A stretch of 62,416 nucleotides of DNA, the filler included, from Collodictyon triciliatum (Eukaryota), in assembly GCA_043381765.1 (NCBI GenBank). It is 5 parts of 5 records of this genome, joined end to end, with 100 filler letters (N's around TTAATTAATTAA, not from the genome) between each part and the next. Parts side by side here need not be neighbours in the genome. Positions count along the whole stretch, not along the records: positions 16,731 to 23,786 come from JBHJMP010000387.1; 4 more parts are not named here. One strand, written 5' to 3'. The notes under the pieces were generated by a model that saw only the letters and a program-made list of their open reading frames with translations, did no database searches and was not told the origin of the DNA. The position numbers and the translations under genes are program-made. Positions 8,809 to 49,205 of the stretch are shown here, one piece after another (the first letter of the stretch is position 1; the number at the start of each line of letters is the position of its first letter).

Positions 8809-8908
8809 NNNNNNNNNNNNNNNNNNNNNNNNNNNNNNNNNNNNNNNNNNNNTTAATTAATTAANNNNNNNNNNNNNNNNNNNNNNNNNNNNNNNNNNNN
8901 NNNNNNNN
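8809..8908. other. Artificial scaffold-joining linker (44 N + TTAATTAATTAA + 44 N)
   Basis: Six-frame stop 12-mer at 8853-8864 inside Ns; the same 12-mer recurs four times. Confidence 0.95.
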
Positions 8909-16630: not shown

Positions 16631-16730
16631 NNNNNNNNNNNNNNNNNNNNNNNNNNNNNNNNNNNNNNNNNNNNTTAATTAATTAANNNNNNNNNNNNNN
16701 NNNNNNNNNNNNNNNNNNNNNNNNNNNNNN
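16631..16730. other. Artificial scaffold-joining linker
   Basis: TTAATTAATTAA at 16675-16686 within Ns. Confidence 0.95.
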
Positions 16731-17100
16731 TCATTCTTTAGTTTTCTTCATGGTAGAAAAATAGTATTACTTTCTTTTCTTTTCTTTCTTTTTTAATGGA
16801 TAGAAATAATCAACAATCAACAAACCATTAAAAATGAATTGCCTAAATTAATAACGAAACAGCTTTTAGTACGATGAAGCATATTTATTTTGGTTCTCTC
16901 CTCCTCTCTGTCGTACAAAGCATTTATTTTTGACGTACATATTACAATATATCTCCTCTTCTCCATCACCATGCTAATTAAAAAAAAATAAACAGAATCC
17001 CACCTTTTTGCACAAAACTGAAAGGAAGAATTAAAAAAAAACATAAACAAAGCGTAGGTGTTCTTGTTTTCATACAACTATTAAATATTCACGATAACAG

Positions 17101-20447
<3,347 letters not shown>

Positions 20448-20689
20448 AAGCAGTGGTATGATGTTTTCTCGTGGAGGTTTTCTGACTTCCTAACACCACC
20501 ACAGAGTAAAGAATATTAGCCCAATCTCCGAAGCACTTCCTTTGTCTGCTTCCTTCTCGCGTAGATCTTGGGGAAAATGCTGCGATAGTGGACAAACAGC
20601 GAACAACAGTGCGACTGGCTCGCTCAATCTGGCCTTGCCCGCCCATATATATATATATATATTTTATAATAAAAATGAAGGCAAGCTTC

Positions 20690-22430
20690 GCACATTTGAT
20701 GGAAAGTACAACCCACGACCCAACGATGGCTTCGTAAGTTGCAGCCAGTTCTTCTGGTTCCAACGCTGGTGCGGAAAAACCCCGAGTTGCACGTAAGTCC
20801 AGGAAAACCCGTGCAAGGAAGCCGCCTGCAAGTCTGTCTGAGCGGACAGTATTTTTGCACGGGGTCGAGCAAGTCGTTTATAACAAGAACAAGATACGCA
20901 GGCTCACAGATGTGCTCGCCTCCTTCTCGAAAGCGAACATACTTTGGGAAGAGTCCATCCAATTGCGCTTACCGGACAGCGAAGGCCTTTGCCTGATCAC
21001 CTTCCGCACTGCAGAAAACGCCCGAAAGCTTGTGGAGCTGAAGCAGGTAAGTTTGAGCGATATTAAGATCAGCTTCAGCAAAAGTAAACCAACAGAACCT
21101 CGGTGATGCTCTACCAACTACCGCTGGACGTGTGGCCGCAACTCTTTCGCGAGGAGCTGAAGCCGTTAAGACCGACCCACGTGGAGATAAAAAAAAAGGA
21201 CAAAGGCTTATTCACAGACACGGGGTGGTGAAGCTTCTTTGTCTCAAGAACCAACTCCCTGCAAAGTTTACGGTCATGGGCAAAGAAGTGTCCAAAGCGC
21301 ATCCTCAAAGAGCGTCCGCCAGCCGCGAACAATGAACGACAAATAAAAGCCCCACAGAAGAATACACCTGTCAAGCAGACAAGCAGCAGCGGGGTCAAGG
21401 AAGCCAAGGCCAGGCAACAACAGAGTTCGCAAGACTCACAGCAGATACACGCATACAGCGACAGCGACGATGACATGGAAGGAAATCTCGGTTCCTCTTC
21501 AGAATCCTCGCACTCGAGCCCCTCCAACACCAACACCGGACAAGCCCGCACATTGCAAGACCCAAGAGCAGTGCATCTCCAAACCCCGAAAGAAATCCCC
21601 CCTTAAATTACCCATTCAGACTGACGTGAATATGGTTAACATAGGAGGCCTCAAGGCAGTCTTCGTTACTTATCCGAAAGGATACTCCAAAGCGAAGGCA
21701 ACACAAGAACCAGCGCCCACAAAAGATAGACCGTTTACCCTGCGCCAGCCCGTCGCACCGAGAACCAAGGAGCAAGAGCAAATAGTACAAGTCGAATCCA
21801 AGCCTGGAACTTCACAAACTAAAGACAGTCCGAGCAAGCAGGAGCGTATGTTTCTAAAACCACAAACGGTATCCATACTCCGGTTAAGAAAGTCCACTGC
21901 GCTACGCATGCCTCCGAAACCAGGGACGGTCAAGCGCCACTTCCGATAATTCCAGACAAACAATGATGCATCACTTTCTGTCTGAATCTCCCAGCAAGAA
22001 ACGCAAGGAAATTGACCCGTTGTCCCCTCAAAAGACTCATCCTGTGGAATGAAATAGGATGTAAACCTTGTCTGAGATAGATGGTCGAAAGGACTCGTCG
22101 GAATCGATTTTAGAAGTAACTGTCATGTGCGTACTTTCATCGACCCGACAACTTTATCCGCTCTTCTGTCAGTCTCGAACACAACCAGAAATCACGTTGG
22201 AGCTAAATCACCTCGGGTAGAATAGGCTGCGTGTGAGAAATTTTCTCTCCTTTCTATCTTGCTTTTTCTTTTTCTTTTTCTTTCCACCCAAAACAAAAAA
22301 CCTCCAACCACACAATCCGAGGGGGTTTCCACTGTCTTGTCCACAGCTCATTTTTATCCTAGAGGCGAAGGCGGGTTCCTCGGGTTTATTTTCAATGATT
22401 TATTTTAAACATTGATAATTAAAAACTGTC
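20690..22430 (+). mobile_element. Degenerate non-LTR retrotransposon (LINE-like) remnant: disrupted ORF1 plus 3' tail, no ORF2
   Basis: Intronless, comparatively GC-rich block. ATG 20726 is followed by an in-frame TAA at 20735, with frameshifts near 21100, 21222 and 21600. The reconstructed protein ...RTVFLHGV...GLCLITFRTAENARKLVELKQVSLSDIKISF...SVMLYQLPLDV...GLFTDTGVVKL...LPAKFTVMGKEV resembles L1/Tx1-type ORF1p RRM regions. The 3' motif at 22358-22393 recurs inside a TSD-flanked insertion at 48063-48098. Boundaries are approximate. Confidence 0.6.
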
Positions 22431-22803
22431 TAATTTACAAACGTCAATCGTTTTCAAAATTGAAATTGGAATATACTATTCATTATTTCTAGAGGTGCAG
22501 TTTATTTTTTTTTAAAAAATTTTCATTCCTTTTTTCCCTTGAGTAATCGTGAATCCTTGAAAACAGTGGTAGTGTGAGACTTTGGCCAGAAGCGAGAAGG
22601 TGGGGATATTTTCAGGTTCCGTAATGAATGTAGAAAGCTTTTGTTGTTGAACTCGTTGAGATGTGGTAATCAGATAGTTTGTGATTTCCCTTCAGCGGCT
22701 GTCCCATAAAAAAAATGACACTGCTATTCTAGTTGGACCCTAAGCTCCTCAATGTATGTACCTTAAAATGCTCCGAGCCGTTGGAAAGCCCCGCATTGAG
22801 TGA

Positions 22804-22845
22804 TGACATCATATATATATTAATATTACTATATATATGATGTCA
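22804..22845. repeat. Perfect 16-bp inverted repeat (hairpin) with a 10-nt loop
   Basis: TGACATCATATATATA - TTAATATTAC - TATATATATGATGTCA. Confidence 0.9.
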
Positions 22846-22864
22846 CTTTACGTCCTTTTTCTAT

Positions 22865-23074
22865 TTCTCGAGGACTGACCGATAACTTATTTCCCTGCAT
22901 TCATACCATATATGGCGAGTACGGTACCTCGCCCTAATTCTCGACGACTGACCGATAACTTATTTCCCTGCATTCATACCAAATGTGGAATATAAAATAA
23001 TTAAATTAATTCTCTGATACCAAATGTGGAATATAAATAATTTAAATTAATTCGCTGATACCATATGCGGTATC
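22865..23074. repeat. Nested direct repeats: a 44-bp unit twice (period 73) and a 41-bp unit twice plus a partial copy
   Basis: TTCTCGA(G/C)GACTGACCGATAACTTATTTCCCTGCATTCATACCA at 22865 and 22938; ATACCAAATGTGGAATATAAA... at 22976 and 23017, partial at 23058. Confidence 0.9.
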
Positions 23075-23261
23075 TTTGCGCTGGCCCACCTGGCCCAAAA
23101 ATCCCAAAAATTTCACGCAAAAAACTTGTTTGCCTGTGTAGATTTTTTTACACGATGATTAAAAAATACATACGCGAGAAATATATTTCCCCCAAAATTT
23201 TGGGATAAGTATATAAAAAATGGGCCAGCCTTCAACTCTTTTTTTATTATAGTTGGTCAGT

Positions 23262-23657
23262 TTATTCATCGTCGCTGTGTCGCTTGATAATATAGCAGAG
23301 CAGAGTAACCAATAATGGTTTCAGCTTTTCTCTCGCAAAAATCCAGTTTCTTCTATCAGGAGATTCCTCAGGATTCATTACACAATGTATACAGTCAAGA
23401 GTATCATCCAGGTGCTTTTCGTAATTATCCTCGACATTAAATTTTTCCAATGCCAAAAAACAGGAGAGCGCATCAGTTGTAAATTCTTCAGTTTTCCTCG
23501 AAGAAGTCAGACTGAGATTAAGGCCAGCTTTCCAAACAACCTTAATGTTGCTCACTTCACTTCTTTTAAACATAATTGAAACATCATTAACTTGATTCCA
23601 TTCATGTTTAATTCTTATTTTATAGTCTTTGTTATAGTAAACAATGGTTGCTGACAT
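23262..23657 (-). CDS. Intronless 131-aa hypothetical protein, probably viral or element-encoded
   Basis: Clean ATG-to-TAA ORF, AT-rich and globular-looking, with no introns, unlike the host genes. Confidence 0.65.
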   Translation of the reverse strand: MSATIVYYNKDYKIRIKHEWNQVNDVSIMFKRSEVSNIKVVWKAGLNLSLTSSRKTEEFTTDALSCFLALEKFNVEDNYEKHLDDTLDCIHCVMNPEESPDRRNWIFAREKLKPLLVTLLCYIIKRHSDDE

Positions 23658-23697
23658 CTTGTAAAGCTATTTAAAGGTAATTTATTAAGTTATTATA

Positions 23698-23786
23698 ATG
23701 TCTTTAACTCAAGAAGAAATATTTAAACCTATTCCTTTTTGTCAACAGTATGAAATTGGTACTTTTGGAAATGTAAGAAATATGTA
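23698..23786 (+). CDS. NUMOD4-motif protein (HNH homing-endonuclease type), N-terminal fragment
   Basis: MSLTQEEIFKPIPFCQQYEIGTFGNVRNM matches the NUMOD4 pattern EEIWKPIPGYEGxYEVSNxGRVRS; truncated by the linker. Confidence 0.7.
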
Positions 23787-23886
23787 NNNNNNNNNNNNNN
23801 NNNNNNNNNNNNNNNNNNNNNNNNNNNNNNTTAATTAATTAANNNNNNNNNNNNNNNNNNNNNNNNNNNNNNNNNNNNNNNNNNNN
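23787..23886. other. Artificial scaffold-joining linker
   Basis: TTAATTAATTAA at 23831-23842 within Ns. Confidence 0.95.
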
Positions 23887-24045
23887 ACAATAAAAAACAA
23901 TAAAAAACAATAAAAAACAATAAAAAACAATAAAAAACAATAAAAAAACAATAAAAAACAATAAAAAACAATAAAAAACAATAAAAAAACAATAAAAAAC
24001 AATAAAAAACAATAAAAAACAATAAACAATAAAAAAACAATAAAA
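23887..24045. repeat. (AATAAAAAAC)n tandem repeat at the scaffold start
   Basis: Direct observation. Confidence 0.9.
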
Positions 24046-24204
24046 AGCAACAAATGGGTAAACGAAGAAAATACAGAGCAATAAAAAGCAAATAGATACG
24101 CAAGTGCAATCCACCATGCACAAAACACACATTACCCATCGCTTTTGCAGCTCCATTTTCAATACCAAACATATGGGCAAACCAGAGTTCACGGACCGAC
24201 CAGG

Positions 24205-24887
24205 ATGGACTCCGTCATCACGAAGGAGGACATCCGAAGGCAGATGGAGGACTTTGCTCGATTTCTGCTCGCAAAAAACTACTACTTGACCGCTCTCGAG
24301 TTTTACCACGAGATCCAGGAAGACGGGGACGAACTTACAATCCTGAAAGAGTGGTTCTCGATGAACTATCCGATAGCCGAGGAGCGCTCAGGTTCACTTT
24401 TGAAGCTATTCTTTCTTTTTTGTGATATTACTGCCTTGTTAAAAAAATGCATTAAAATAACTGTAGAGAATTAAAAAAAAACCAGAAAAGCATAAGAAAA
24501 CAGAAAATCGCCAAAACATCAAACAAAAACAAAACAAAACAAAACAAAACAAAACAAAACAAAACAAAACAAAACAAAACAAAACAAAACAAAACAAAAC
24601 AAAAAACAAAACAAAAAAACAAAAAACAAAAAAACAAAAAACAAAAAACAAAAAAACNNNNNNNNNNNNNNNNNNNNNNNNNNNNNNNNNNNNNNNNNNN
24701 NNNNNNNNNNNNNNNNNNNNNNNNNNNNNNNNNNNNNNNNNNNNNNNNNNNNNNNNNAAAAAAAAAAAAAACAAAAAAAACAAAAAAAAAAAAAAAACAA
24801 AAACAAAAACAAAATATAATAAATACCAGAAATATATTAGATAACAGAAAATCATTAAAGAATACAAAAACTTAAAAACCCCCAAAA

Positions 24888-24936
<49 letters not shown>

Positions 24937-24939
24937 CCC

Positions 24940-24970
<31 letters not shown>

Positions 24971-27900
24971 AAACCGCGAATAAATATCAAAGACCTACCA
25001 ACGCATAATAACAATGATAAACACTCAAATTCTGACTACCCTTATCGAATTTTGCATTCACATAACCTTATCGCAGAGCCGAAACCATCGTTGCGCCCAG
25101 TTAGCGCTGTGGAGGTTAATAAAGACGAAAAGATAGCCATCCTCGAATATGAGCTACGTATTGCTTACGAAGACTTGGAGAAAATGAGAGAACGTCTATT
25201 GAGTCTGCAAAATCAAATCCAGATGCAAGGAGTGCCTATCATGACACAATCAGGCAAACAGAAAGTGAGTCAATATGTGACTCAACTAATTCCATTTTAG
25301 TTCGATAAACTAAAAGTTTTTTTTTTTTAGTTTGAACATACAATAGCATGTCTCAATGTCTCCGTAATTAACAATAATATTTATTTTATTTTGCATACTT
25401 TCATTCCTGCTCCTTTATTTCCTTCAGGACCTAAGTGCATCCACTCCGCCAAGTGGTCGCCTTCAAAGCAGTCCATCCGGTGATGGCACAGATTCCTCTG
25501 GAGTCGCAAATTTATATTCAGAGCCGATAAAAACACACGAAAAGCGTATCCTTAATCATTTAATAAAGAAATTCCTCCTCAACAACGGTTACAAACTGAC
25601 AGCGCTCACACTGAATGACGAGGTATAATCTATGCAAATTTCATAAAACGACATGCGCGCTTATTTTATTGGGTTCCACATGCAGCAGATGTCAAATATA
25701 GGATTGTTTCATTGTTCCTTTTTCCTTTTCCCTTTCCTTTTCCCTTTCCCTTTTTCCTTTTTCCTTTTTCCTTTTCCCTTTTTCCTTTTTCCTTTTTCCC
25801 TTTTTCCTTTTCCCTTTTTCCTTTTCCCTTTTTCCTTTTCCCTTTTTCCTTTTTTCTTTTTCTTTTTCTTTTTCTTTTTCTTTTTTCTTTTTCTTTTTCT
25901 TTTTCTTATTTGTCCGAACTTACCAATCGCTTCTACGTTACCTAGTGCTCTGTGCTTGTGTTGATTTCTTTTAACATTACAGGTGGCGGACCAGAGACTG
26001 GATGACACCAGTGACATTGGATCTCCAGTCGGGTTTCCTCCTGAGCTCTTCCATCTGATACGCGCATACAACGCCCTTCCGTCATCAATGTCCTTCAAAC
26101 AGGTAAATCCCTGTCTATAATGCGTATCTGTGTGAGACGCGCACGATTTCATACTTTATCTTTCTCTCCTTTATCACCAAAATTTGGTGTATATATTAAT
26201 TATGTTGTCTAATCTGTTAATACAGGCCAAGAAGCGACGAGAATCGCGTTCAGATTTACGTTTGGGTGATTCTGAGGTGAACCTCCTTTGACCTTAAAAC
26301 GCTGTTGTTTTAGATATCATGAGAGATATCCAACATAATCCATTTTTTTCTTCTTGATATCTTCCATCACACCAAACAGATGTCTTGAAATTCAATCACC
26401 GCTCATCTTATTTTCTCACTAATATTTGTGGTTGCATCTATCTCGCCAACCTCCATCACCTCCAAAATATCAACAGGCGCCCCTGTCCCCGAGTGTGTCT
26501 ATCAATGGCTCCTTGGATAAAATTGCTGACATATCTGATGAGTTGGAGATTACTTTGGAAAAGAAAGCAGGTATACGTCATCATGAGTTGAAATATCTTC
26601 AAAGTGTCTTTTCTATTTGGTCGTCGTTCCCTCCTTTATCAATTGTCTCTTCATATCCCTTGCAGACGAGCCCACAAACGCCGTTGAGGATGCTGCCGCT
26701 GAACCTGTTGTCGAAAGCTCAAAAGATTCTAAAGTGATATCTCTCAATACTCTGAAAATTGTTGAAACCCATAATTCCTCCGACCAAGTGGAAAATTATT
26801 TCAAAAATCTTAAATATTCACGCTTGCATGTCTCTGTCACTCATGAATCATCAATGTCTTTTTGCAATATCTTGTTGATTAGAGAATGAAGTTTACCCGC
26901 AAACATATGAGACTCATCACCGCGACGAAAGTACGAATACTCAATTTTTAGAGTTTAATGTCGGTGCTTTCCTTTCCTTTAAAATTGAAAATAGTGAATC
27001 AAAATCTAGAGTAATAGACTGATTGATAAAAAAAAAAATACATAAACAAATTAATCAGGTACAAGAGGAGGAATCACAGCCAGAAGATGAATTGAGCCGC
27101 ACTTTGCGTGAAGATCTACAAAAAAGAGTAAACATTTGTTGATCAGAAATGAACAAACACCGTCTATCGTAAAGCACATCTTGTAGCTTTATTATTGAAC
27201 GGGGACTCTAATACATTCTCCTTGAACTCTAATTTGGATTCTTTTGTTTTATTCTGAGCAGCATTTACTTACATAATAGCATATGTTTTCTCTTAAAAAA
27301 TTATACAAATACCCATGTAGATGGCCATTCTCGGAGACGGATTGATTGATGATGCTGAAGGGTTTGTGCGATTGATGGCAGACTCCCTCCCGCATATCGT
27401 ACCCAACGTGCTTCTGAATAAGAGAGAGGTACTCTTTGTTCCTTTCCATTAATGAATACAACATGTAAAGGCAAATAGGAGCAAATCTCTGTGAAATTTA
27501 ATTCAAGTAGCTGACATATTAATCACTTTTCTGACTTGCCATCTTCAAAAAGGAACTGATCCCTGTACTCGTGGGAACCATCGGTCTTCATCCAGATGCC
27601 AAAATACGCGATTCTCTTACTCACATGCTGTAAGTTTTAACCAAGCGGCGGTATTCCTCCATCTTGTCCTTTTGTATTTCAATCGAGGGAATTGGTGCCT
27701 CTTTTCTTTCAAATAAATCCGACGATGGTGCAGAAATTGTACTCATGACATTTATCTGACATTCTTTAAATCATGAAATAACCTATAGATTCAATCTGAT
27801 AAAGAAGCCTGATGACAAGCAAAGAAAAATCATTCTAGCGGGTTGCATTTCCTTGGCTAGGACCCTTGGCGCAGATAGAACAGGGGAGGAACTCCTTCCA

Positions 27901-40528: not shown

Positions 40529-48726
<8,198 letters not shown>

Positions 48727-49105: not shown

Positions 49106-49205
49106 NNNNNNNNNNNNNNNNNNNNNNNNNNNNNNNNNNNNNNNNNNNNTTAATTAATTAANNNNNNNNNNNNNNNNNNNNNNNNNNNNNNNNNNNNNNN
49201 NNNNN
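49106..49205. other. Artificial scaffold-joining linker
   Basis: TTAATTAATTAA at 49150-49161 within Ns. Confidence 0.95.

Follow-up and report, generated by a model that had tools for sequence, protein, structure and literature searches.

Polinton-like viruses (PLVs) as well as virophages are described as dsDNA viruses, linear or circular, of protists that integrate in eukaryote genomes with TSDs of 5–7 bp (PMC12220804, PMC7805220). For PLVs, the reported genome size is 14–40 kb, with terminal inverted repeats (TIRs) of several hundred bp and TSDs of 5–6 bp, and one PLV is reported to carry a NUMOD4-HNH_3-AP2 gene (PMC12220804). PLVs are further described as abundant in lake water, with TIRs marking complete genomes, and contigs with animal-Polinton-type capsid genes as low in the fraction of virus size and enriched in the microbial one (PMC7805220). 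Transpovirons are described as 7-kb episomes of mimiviruses (PMC7031253). We compared these systems with the locus at positions 22799–23786 of a 62,416-nt window (the whole stretch of DNA that was analysed). Among the other linear DNAs with which the locus can be compared, Polintons/Mavericks have 5'-AG...CT-3' termini and a 6-bp TSD, and transpovirons and the cytoplasmic or mitochondrial linear plasmids are small AT-rich linear DNAs with TIRs. Expected of PLVs and virophages are genomes of about 14–40 kb and TIRs between 100 bp and several kb in length.

The window consists of five small scaffolds joined by N44-TTAATTAATTAA-N44 linkers at four places. The locus forms the final 1 kb of one of these scaffolds, which is small (~7 kb) and unplaced (16731–23786; JBHJMP010000387.1). 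The preliminary description had placed it at a scaffold edge, which was right: a linker follows directly after 23786 (23787–23886; N44, six-frame stop linker, N44), and this joint is artificial and not biology. All the features which that description had listed were present where it had put them. In the window as a whole, no Rfam families or tRNAs were found, six host-like ORFs had no Pfam match and no homologue was found for an ORF of 832 aa. On balance, we take 22799–23786 to be one end of a small linear freshwater element, a dsDNA virus or something like a plasmid, most likely of the PLV or virophage kind.

Near-identical DNA was present in the metagenomes of 11 studies, 19 runs in all, with 0.24–0.61 of the element's sampled words found per run. 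Ten of these runs are labelled freshwater, four wetland, two riverine and two sediment, and one carries no label. An RNA run (X20) had a share of 0.07, which has no bearing on expression or habitat. Four of the 19 runs (X1, X2, X4 and X6) were aligned to the window. The element was covered in all four; positions 22537–22804 were covered in none, and in three of them (X2, X4 and X6) nothing aligned to the flank at 21800–22804. The block is foreign and real DNA. A 12,670-nt wetland contig (X6 record 22) was colinear with 23209–23782 and extended ~12.1 kb beyond the scaffold end, which supports the earlier proposal that the assembly broke inside a mobile genome, foreign and virus-like, of which the locus represents the end region.

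A shift from host-like DNA had been proposed at 22799. The boundary stood, though not as a change in composition (GC 0.329 in the element versus 0.356–0.397 in the flank); the boundary is shown by the edge of a palindrome and by the stops of metagenome contigs, not by composition. Position 22799 is the outer edge of an AT-rich imperfect palindrome of 49 nt (22799–22847), where the symmetry ends; as ssDNA the palindrome would form a hairpin with a 16-bp stem and a 10-nt loop. Its core (22804–22845, 42 nt) has 95% complementarity and reaches 22799–22847 if a 3-nt bulge (22804–22806) is allowed; there is also one mismatch (22820/22829). The predicted folding energy of the single strand was −11.9 kcal/mol (z = −6.4), none of 200 shuffles was equally stable, and the palindrome is unique within the window. 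Host-like DNA adjoins the element exactly at this outer edge in the assembly, and no repeat is common to the two sides of the junction. A mirror arm outside the palindrome is absent, as 22760–22798 and the reverse complement of 22848–22886 were identical at 9 of 39 positions. In the metagenomes, the X4 element contig begins at 22833, and in X1 33 other AT-rich letters precede 22843. To our knowledge, a terminal palindrome is not a known PLV feature, and a limited search of the literature found no description of a 49-nt terminal palindrome with iterons in PLVs.

The loop of the hairpin contains TAATATTAC (22821–22829), which we take to be the canonical nonanucleotide of CRESS/geminivirus-type origins. 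Could the locus then be the rolling-circle origin of a small circular DNA (CRESS-DNA, geminivirus or nanovirus-like)? The position of TAATATTAC in a 10-nt loop above a 16-bp stem, with four iterons adjoining, would fit such an origin, but the AATATT centre is no more than an AT-rich palindrome would have at its axis, the palindrome of the X1 variant is another AT-rich one that lacks the C, and no Rep-like ORF or Pfam match was found. The colinear relative contig of 12,670 nt rules this origin out unless that contig is itself chimeric, and we regard the explanation as hardly credible.

Inward of the palindrome, the non-coding block of hairpin and tandem repeats that had been reported from 22799 was indeed found: it spans 463 bp (22799–23261), and every ORF in it is ≤47 aa. 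It contains a direct repeat, D1, with two 55-nt copies on the + strand (22861–22988; starts at 22861 and 22934, 73 nt apart, 93% identical), and a tandem repeat, D2, with 2.2 copies of a 41-nt unit on the same strand (22976–23067, 92% matches). The core shared by these repeats, ATACCAWATRYGG, forms four iterons at 22903–23070 (starts 22903, 22976, 23017 and 23058; spacing 73, 41 and 41), each on the + strand and within the terminal block; 0.01 copies were expected and none of 100 shuffles reached four. Each D1 copy has an iteron at its end, and D1 and D2 represent two nested tandem duplications that carry the iterons. A diverged wild contig (X1 record 8) lacks 56 nt at D1 and thus has a single copy. 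Between the D1 copies a small GC hairpin is predicted (22914–22933; 6-bp stem, 8-nt loop), which is probably without function because wild contigs from X1 and X6 vary at 22916 and 22917, changes that would break the stem. The inner part of the terminal block (23068–23238, ~170 bp) is non-repetitive and non-coding, and wild contigs break at its end.

These breaks bear on whether the block is a terminal repeat. Two contigs (X1 record 6 and X6 record 21) terminate at 23238, and in X2 and X6 the block 22833–23238 has two right-hand neighbours: the continuation seen in the window is also present, and behind 23238 both runs share an identical 30-letter loose-end consensus, which is the second neighbour. 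These 30 letters are absent from the window. The window-type continuation past 23238 was found in X4 record 13 and X1 record 7. The contig depth of the block was 1.6–2.7 times that of the unique part (32.3–44.8 versus 19.7 in X1; 31.9–33.8 versus 12.7 in X6), contig depth being a poor measure. Because contigs break at 23238 and two different inner neighbours occur, we read the ~440-bp block 22799–23238 as a probable terminal inverted repeat. Of the earlier claim of a terminal repeat, the repeat with two inner neighbours is thus borne out, while the inverted orientation of the second copy is what we infer. Two co-occurring strains with a common block would likewise give two continuations. The 12,670-nt contig stops at the edge of the repeat; contigs of the same run reach 32.8 kb. 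As the unique part is at least ~12.6 kb, the whole element is probably ~13–14 kb or more.

In several respects the element resembles PLVs and virophages as these are described in the sources cited above: TIRs of several hundred bp (the candidate here is ~440 bp), compact intronless genes, a size range that fits at least 12.7 kb plus the repeats, occurrence in lakes and fresh water, and a NUMOD4-type gene, reported for one PLV. It differs from PLVs in its 49-nt palindrome and iterons, going by the limited literature search, and in its 131-aa ORF, which has no relative in IMG/VR. With just 548 bp past the repeat in the window, the Polinton-like class is a tentative assignment from features other than hallmark genes; the double-jelly-roll capsid, minor capsid, FtsK-type packaging ATPase, pPolB and rve integrase would lie past 23786. 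Of Polintons/Mavericks, the defining pPolB and rve integrase were not seen in these 548 bp. With Polintons/Mavericks the element would share TIRs and, if the palindrome edge at 22799 is the true end, an AG start (22799–22800). The other end, where a second copy of the predicted TSD (GCATTG) would lie, is absent from the window. In contrast to the animal-Polinton-type capsid contigs, reported as enriched in the microbial fraction, the element occurred without the flank in three of the four aligned runs. Transpovirons and linear plasmids are likewise small, AT-rich and linear with TIRs, but the relative contig, at 12.7 kb, already exceeds a transpoviron, and any polymerase or helicase gene would lie past the scaffold end.

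Past the repeat, two intronless, compact and divergent ORFs are arranged head-to-head with their start codons 40 bp apart, as had been reported. The first (ORF131, 23262–23657, − strand, 131 aa) is an orphan that reads towards the terminus, and none of 2000 shuffles of 23239–23786 gave an equally long ORF. Among ~15 billion proteins, only three relatives were found: P0001 (97% identity), P0002 (47–51%) and P0006 (50%), so that the protein is conserved at 47–51% identity in two other contigs. P0002 is encoded on a 10,102-nt Logan contig; the relatives overall are encoded on a 1,859-nt JGI contig and on Logan contigs. A further candidate, P0003 (1,063 aa), was rejected as spurious, being a repetitive protein with an additive score over 10 stretches. 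ORF131 had no Pfam or PHROG family and no usable ESM Atlas match. Its single-sequence model was poor (pLDDT 59), and Foldseek with it returned nothing at E ≤ 0.001; the model built with a 3-row alignment (pLDDT 83.9) predicts a six-stranded sheet and three helices. With the alignment-based model there was no fold match in BFVD at E ≤ 0.001, and in a wide scan of the PDB the best Z was 6.6, while several polo-box domains scored Z 5.2–6.0. All this is below the trusted level; therefore we name no fold.

The conservation of ORF131 argues against an ordinary host transposon or non-coding repeat in which the ORFs arose by chance. Small unplaced scaffolds often end in repeats, but the length of ORF131 exceeds chance in the shuffles, the protein is conserved elsewhere, three of the four aligned runs contain the element with no host-like flank and it is single copy in the 62-kb window, so we consider a host repeat very improbable. 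The multiple copies that the preliminary description had expected were not seen in the window, which contains one copy and one end.

The spacer between the two start codons (23658–23697, 40 bp, GC 0.175) may act as a bidirectional promoter. The second ORF (23698–23786, + strand) is cut by the scaffold end after 29 codons and is putatively of the NUMOD4 type (HNH homing-endonuclease-like); positions 23655–23782 are identical in the 12,670-nt contig from X6. The resemblance to the NUMOD4 motif from which this ORF had been named stands, while the score lies below the Pfam cut-off (17.6 versus 23.4 bits, E = 0.0046, a weak match on 29 residues). The 29 residues fit positions 1–24 of 49, the first half of the profile, as in NUMOD4-HNH homing endonucleases of the I-HmuI type; in the element, the HNH domain would lie past the scaffold end.

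From the outside to the inside, the end would thus read as a 49-nt palindrome, four iterons in nested duplications and ~170 bp of unique non-coding DNA, which together would form the TIR, followed inward of it by the leftward ORF131, a putative AT-rich bidirectional promoter region of 40 bp and the rightward NUMOD4/HNH-type gene. The palindrome and iterons may form a replication and end-recognition module, which could serve as the origin for end-initiated replication and as the substrate for the activity, of whatever kind, that links the element's ends to other DNA, and an element-encoded protein might bind the iterons.

The NUMOD4-type ORF also raises the question of a prokaryotic origin, in which case the locus would be the terminus of a linear replicon of bacteria or archaea that has ITRs (a linear plasmid, for example, or a tectivirus-like phage). 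It is among phages that NUMOD4-HNH genes are commonest, an HNH endonuclease family was the top PHROG match of the 29 residues (phrog_59, E 0.17) and the abundance in metagenomes is compatible with such a replicon. However, there was no DNA or protein match in 50,697 phage records (blastn, tblastn), and no match in 72,556 plasmids (blastn) or in 185,579 prokaryote genomes (protein-guided). Neither ATG is preceded by a Shine-Dalgarno-like purine run when the sequence is read directly, σ70-like sites showed no enrichment (9 versus 5.8 ± 2.8 expected), and intrinsic terminators were not found. By the searches run and by these sequence features, the element appears not to be prokaryotic, and we consider a prokaryotic replicon quite unlikely.

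The termini of poxviruses, ASFV and chloroviruses consist of an AT-rich imperfect hairpin, tandem repeats and small terminal genes, and a study of Chlorella virus CVK1 reportedly found terminal inverted repeats with neighbouring tandem repeats. NUMOD4/HNH genes are common in giant viruses. The locus could therefore be the place where the genome of a giant virus (Nucleocytoviricota) ends in a hairpin telomere, an ITR with tandem repeats and small terminal genes. The order seen here, from an AT-rich incompletely paired hairpin through tandem repeats to small ORFs, fits that architecture, as does the NUMOD4-type gene, and the X1 variant contig starts 15 nt past the palindrome centre, as a fold-back would in an assembly with 31-letter words. 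On the other hand, there is no mirrored read-through past the palindrome in the window, no poxvirus-type resolution motif was seen by eye to the right of the hairpin and ORF131 lacks a BFVD fold match at E ≤ 0.001. Nor is there any sign of a large genome, and the sole long relative contig ends at the repeat edge although its run contains longer ones. A giant virus terminus is unlikely.

Collections of environmental sequence gave no further relatives. IMG/VR had no exact match to four patterns and no relative of ORF131 with either a single protein or an alignment as query, and in a metagenome contig collection both a protein-guided scan and an exact pattern search were empty. IMG/VR contains many virophages and PLVs, and its lack of matches to the element counts against that reading.

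Is the element integrated in this genome? We hold this possibility tentatively. It is about as likely that the join at 22799 is not biological and that one chimeric clone or read tied host DNA to the natural end of a free virus or plasmid, co-sequenced because the organism's water, food or gut contained it, since three of the four aligned runs contain the element without the flank. Such a chimera would concern the status of the join only and is compatible with an end of a PLV- or virophage-like element. It would agree with the ~99% identity to environmental copies, with the presence of the element in 19 environmental runs from 11 studies, with a small unplaced scaffold that ends 548 bp past the repeat and with a window that holds no second copy or other end; in a genome of ~13 kb, moreover, natural ends would make up a sizeable share of fragment ends. 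Against it, the junction coincides exactly with the palindrome's outer edge, and no repeat is shared by flank and element that could mislead an assembler, so that a physical chimera would be needed. In X1, moreover, element and host-like pieces are both present at comparable contig depth, a weak measure.

A still more specific account, which we consider unlikely in its entirety, is that of a live freshwater dsDNA virus of ~13–14 kb that circulates outside cells at present, has orphan genes, belongs to a lineage that IMG/VR lacks and ends in terminal palindromes, not in plain TIR ends. It would have integrated freshly, with ~99% identity to its free copies, into an intron-rich eukaryote's nuclear genome. 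Such a virus would be Polinton-like with an environmental and an endogenous phase, and hairpins would possibly assist its end replication or end-joining integration.

If the join is real, it would represent the insertion of a virus that still circulates in fresh waters and is nearly identical to its free copies, and it would link an uncultured virus lineage to a host and be an example of endogenisation in progress. A chimeric join would be a contamination flag for the unplaced scaffolds of the assembly; the locus would still point to a small linear element that is widespread and undescribed, and of which the end structure (palindrome and iterons) and the orphan genes are absent from the reference collections searched here.

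The environmental copies themselves vary. X1 was ~99% like the window, from which it differed at 6 letters over 23216–23782, at 3 in 216 and at 2 in 103. The strains form a mosaic, with a different left neighbour at 23091 in X6 and with 23038–23255 missing from X1 record 8.

The element (22799-23786) is the end of a virus-like genome, both real and foreign, and occupies the 3′ end of a 7-kb scaffold (16731-23786) with one 100-N gap. Its repeat-rich terminal block (22799-23261, 463 bp) contains no ORF longer than 47 aa and opens with a 42-nt palindrome (22804-22845, 95% complementarity), which reaches 22799-22847 once a 3-nt bulge and one mismatch are allowed and which occurs once in the window. 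Folded as single-stranded DNA, the palindrome adopts a hairpin with 16 bp in the stem and 10 nt in the loop (-11.9 kcal/mol, z = -6.4), an energy equalled by none of 200 shuffles. The palindrome is followed by two copies of a 55-nt unit (at 22861 and 22934) and 2.2 copies of a 41-nt unit (22976-23067); the core ATACCAWATRYGG is present in both repeat types, in four copies of a single orientation that are found in the block only (0.01 expected). The hairpin and tandem-repeat non-coding block that the preliminary description had placed from 22799 onwards was thus confirmed. The step in GC content at 22799 is slight (0.329 in the element versus 0.356-0.397 in the flank, the host-like DNA to its left), so the boundary rests on other evidence.

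Part of this evidence came from public metagenomes. Nineteen runs from 11 studies, labelled freshwater (10), wetland (4), riverine (2), sediment (2) or none (1), contain a 0.24-0.61 share of the words sampled from 22799-23786. We compared the contigs of four runs from four studies (X1, X2, X4 and X6) with 21800-23786. The element was covered in all four, and the X1 contigs were about 99% alike to it (differences at 2 of 103 letters, at 3 of 216, and at 6 positions across 23216-23782). On the flank (21800-22804) nothing was found in three of the four (X2, X4 and X6), and 22537-22804 was covered by none of the compared runs. X1 gave flank pieces at 21851-22392 (contig depth 7-16) plus depth in the 22470-22536 bin; the pieces listed show a 5-8% difference to the window (92-95% identity), so that some relative of the host-like organism, or one of its repeat families, is present in the X1 sample together with the element. 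Contigs of the element start on the left at 22833 in X4, and X1 has 33 different AT-rich letters before 22843, which hold their own palindrome with its centre at the same place. The runs without the flank and the contig starts at the palindrome indicate that the element exists in nature without the flank; it is foreign. The boundary claimed at 22799 therefore held: it is the outer edge of the palindrome, and similarity of the wild contigs stops in or at this palindrome.

A 12,670-nt contig of a relative in X6 is colinear with 23209-23782, ends at 23209 and extends about 12.1 kb past the scaffold end, in agreement with the earlier claim that the assembly broke inside the element. In X1 and X6 the block contigs end at 23238. 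X2 and X6 share one alternative sequence behind this position, and the window-type continuation is found in X1, X2, X4 and X6. Two right-hand neighbours with nothing at the left are what a terminal inverted repeat (TIR) gives in a short-word assembly, and the best reading of the block is therefore a TIR of a linear genome (putative repeat 22799-23238), the inverted orientation of the second copy being putative. For the terminal repeat proposed earlier, two neighbours and contigs ending at 23238 were thus observed, but the inverted second copy was not seen. The depth of the block contigs was 1.6-2.7x that of the unique part, contig depth being a poor measure. Strains are mosaic: at 23091 X6 has another left neighbour, and one of the X1 contigs, a diverged one, is without one 55-nt unit and without 23038-23255.

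Two ORFs follow the block head-to-head, 40 bp apart, as had been described: ORF131 (23262-23657, minus strand, 131 aa, a length reached by none of 2000 shuffles) and a NUMOD4-like ORF from 23698 on the plus strand, with 29 residues available before the scaffold end; the spacer has 17.5% GC. The NUMOD4 start was borne out in part, since the 29 residues match the first half of the Pfam profile (E = 0.0046) but score under the curated cut-off. Among about 15 billion proteins searched, ORF131 had only three relatives: P0001 (97%, on a 1,859-nt contig), P0002 (47-51%, two contigs, the longest 10,102 nt) and P0006 (50%, 3,097-nt contig). P0003 was dropped as a repetitive protein. In the alignment, 63 residue positions over 138 columns are invariant in all three aligned sequences, which indicates that ORF131 is a real gene. 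It matched no Pfam family and no PHROG family. The model predicted from the three-row alignment is confident (pLDDT 83.9, pTM 0.79) and has six strands and then three helices; the top-scoring structures in a comparison with it (Z 6.6, with polo-box domains at Z 5.2-6.0) were under the trustworthy level, and a fold search of BFVD gave no match at E ≤ 0.001.

What kind of element could this be? A prokaryotic origin is disfavoured: collections of phages, plasmids and prokaryote genomes gave no match, we found no Shine-Dalgarno-like motif, and sigma-70-like sites were not in excess. The hairpin loop (22821-22829) reads TAATATTAC, the canonical rolling-circle origin nonanucleotide of geminiviruses and nanoviruses. 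We rejected such an origin because of the 12.7-kb relative contig, the absence of the motif in the X1 variant and the absence of Rep, and we regard the motif as a side effect of an AT-rich palindrome with AATATT at its centre. In giant-virus termini the hairpin is followed by tandem repeats and then by small genes, an order shared by the element; however, the mirrored arm expected from hairpin read-through is absent in the window (9 of 39 positions match) and there is no sign of a large genome.

By anatomy and by ecology, the known kind that comes closest is that of the Polinton-like viruses (PLVs) together with the virophages. PLVs are described in one source as 14-40 kb long, with TIRs of several hundred bp, comparable to the putative TIR here, and with 5-6 bp target site duplications upon integration; the same source has NUMOD4-HNH_3-AP2 in one PLV, similar to the NUMOD4-like ORF start of the element (PMC12220804). 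Lake water is rich in PLVs, whose complete genomes are marked by TIRs, according to a second source (PMC7805220), and the element likewise occurs in freshwater metagenomes. The element probably adds a new member to the Polinton-like or virophage-like world, with this class being putative. In such a genome, the palindrome and the four iterons would form a module for end recognition and replication, the iterons may be bound by a protein encoded in the element, and the 40-bp AT-rich spacer could drive both divergent genes. The NUMOD4/HNH gene may be a selfish homing endonuclease. It adjoins the stretch where the element is most mosaic: the 12,670-nt X6 contig shows 0 differences over 23655-23782 (the intergenic region and endonuclease start), about 16% over 23209-23407 and an equal-length diverged stretch between them, the ORF131 region (23239-23654) being diverged by 16% or more. 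This pattern suggests recombination beside a homing-endonuclease gene.

Whether the element is integrated in the host-like DNA or joined to it chimerically is a separate question. The sequence is continuous across 22799, no repeat is common to host and element at the join, and the join coincides exactly with the terminal palindrome's outer edge, as integration would have it. On the other hand, the scaffold is unplaced, only 7 kb long and stops after 548 bp of unique element DNA, free copies are about 99% identical to the element, and the DNA preparation of a freshwater organism could easily include such a virus. Moreover, instead of the multiple copies expected earlier, the window has a single copy and one end, which leaves the earlier GCATTG target site duplication a prediction. 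We therefore consider integration possible, with a chance slightly short of even.

The five small scaffolds of the window are strung together by N44-TTAATTAATTAA-N44 linkers (8809-8908, 16631-16730, 23787-23886 and 49106-49205), so features are not to be read across the joints; 12 more N runs, 79-100 long, are ordinary gaps. The linker after 23786 marks the end of the scaffold 16731-23786, in line with the scaffold edge reported before, and the DNA beyond 23887 is unrelated to the element. A 36-nt GC-rich motif is common to the flank (22358-22393) and another scaffold (48063-48098), on opposite strands with 91.7% identity; it may represent a regulatory element or a short repeat of the host. 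By this motif and the same kind of microsatellites on the scaffold, the flank belongs with the remainder of the window. Long microsatellite arrays (17640-18080, 19100-19215, 23887-24054 and 24521-24968), which comprise a 12-nt GAAG-type unit, a trinucleotide run, (ACAATAAAAA)n, (AAACA)n and poly-A, characterise the host-like DNA, and none is found in the element. An 832-codon open frame (40532-43027, minus strand) in a GC-rich stretch (0.54-0.64), with low-complexity HS, GH and GY runs, gave no Pfam family and no homologue of similar length. Just past the scaffold joint, exon-like host-gene frames (24211-24399 and about 25075-25270, both plus strand) are divided by an intron-like stretch rich in A-rich microsatellites; the first, with no Pfam match at E ≤ 0.01, looks by eye like a LisH-type N-terminus.
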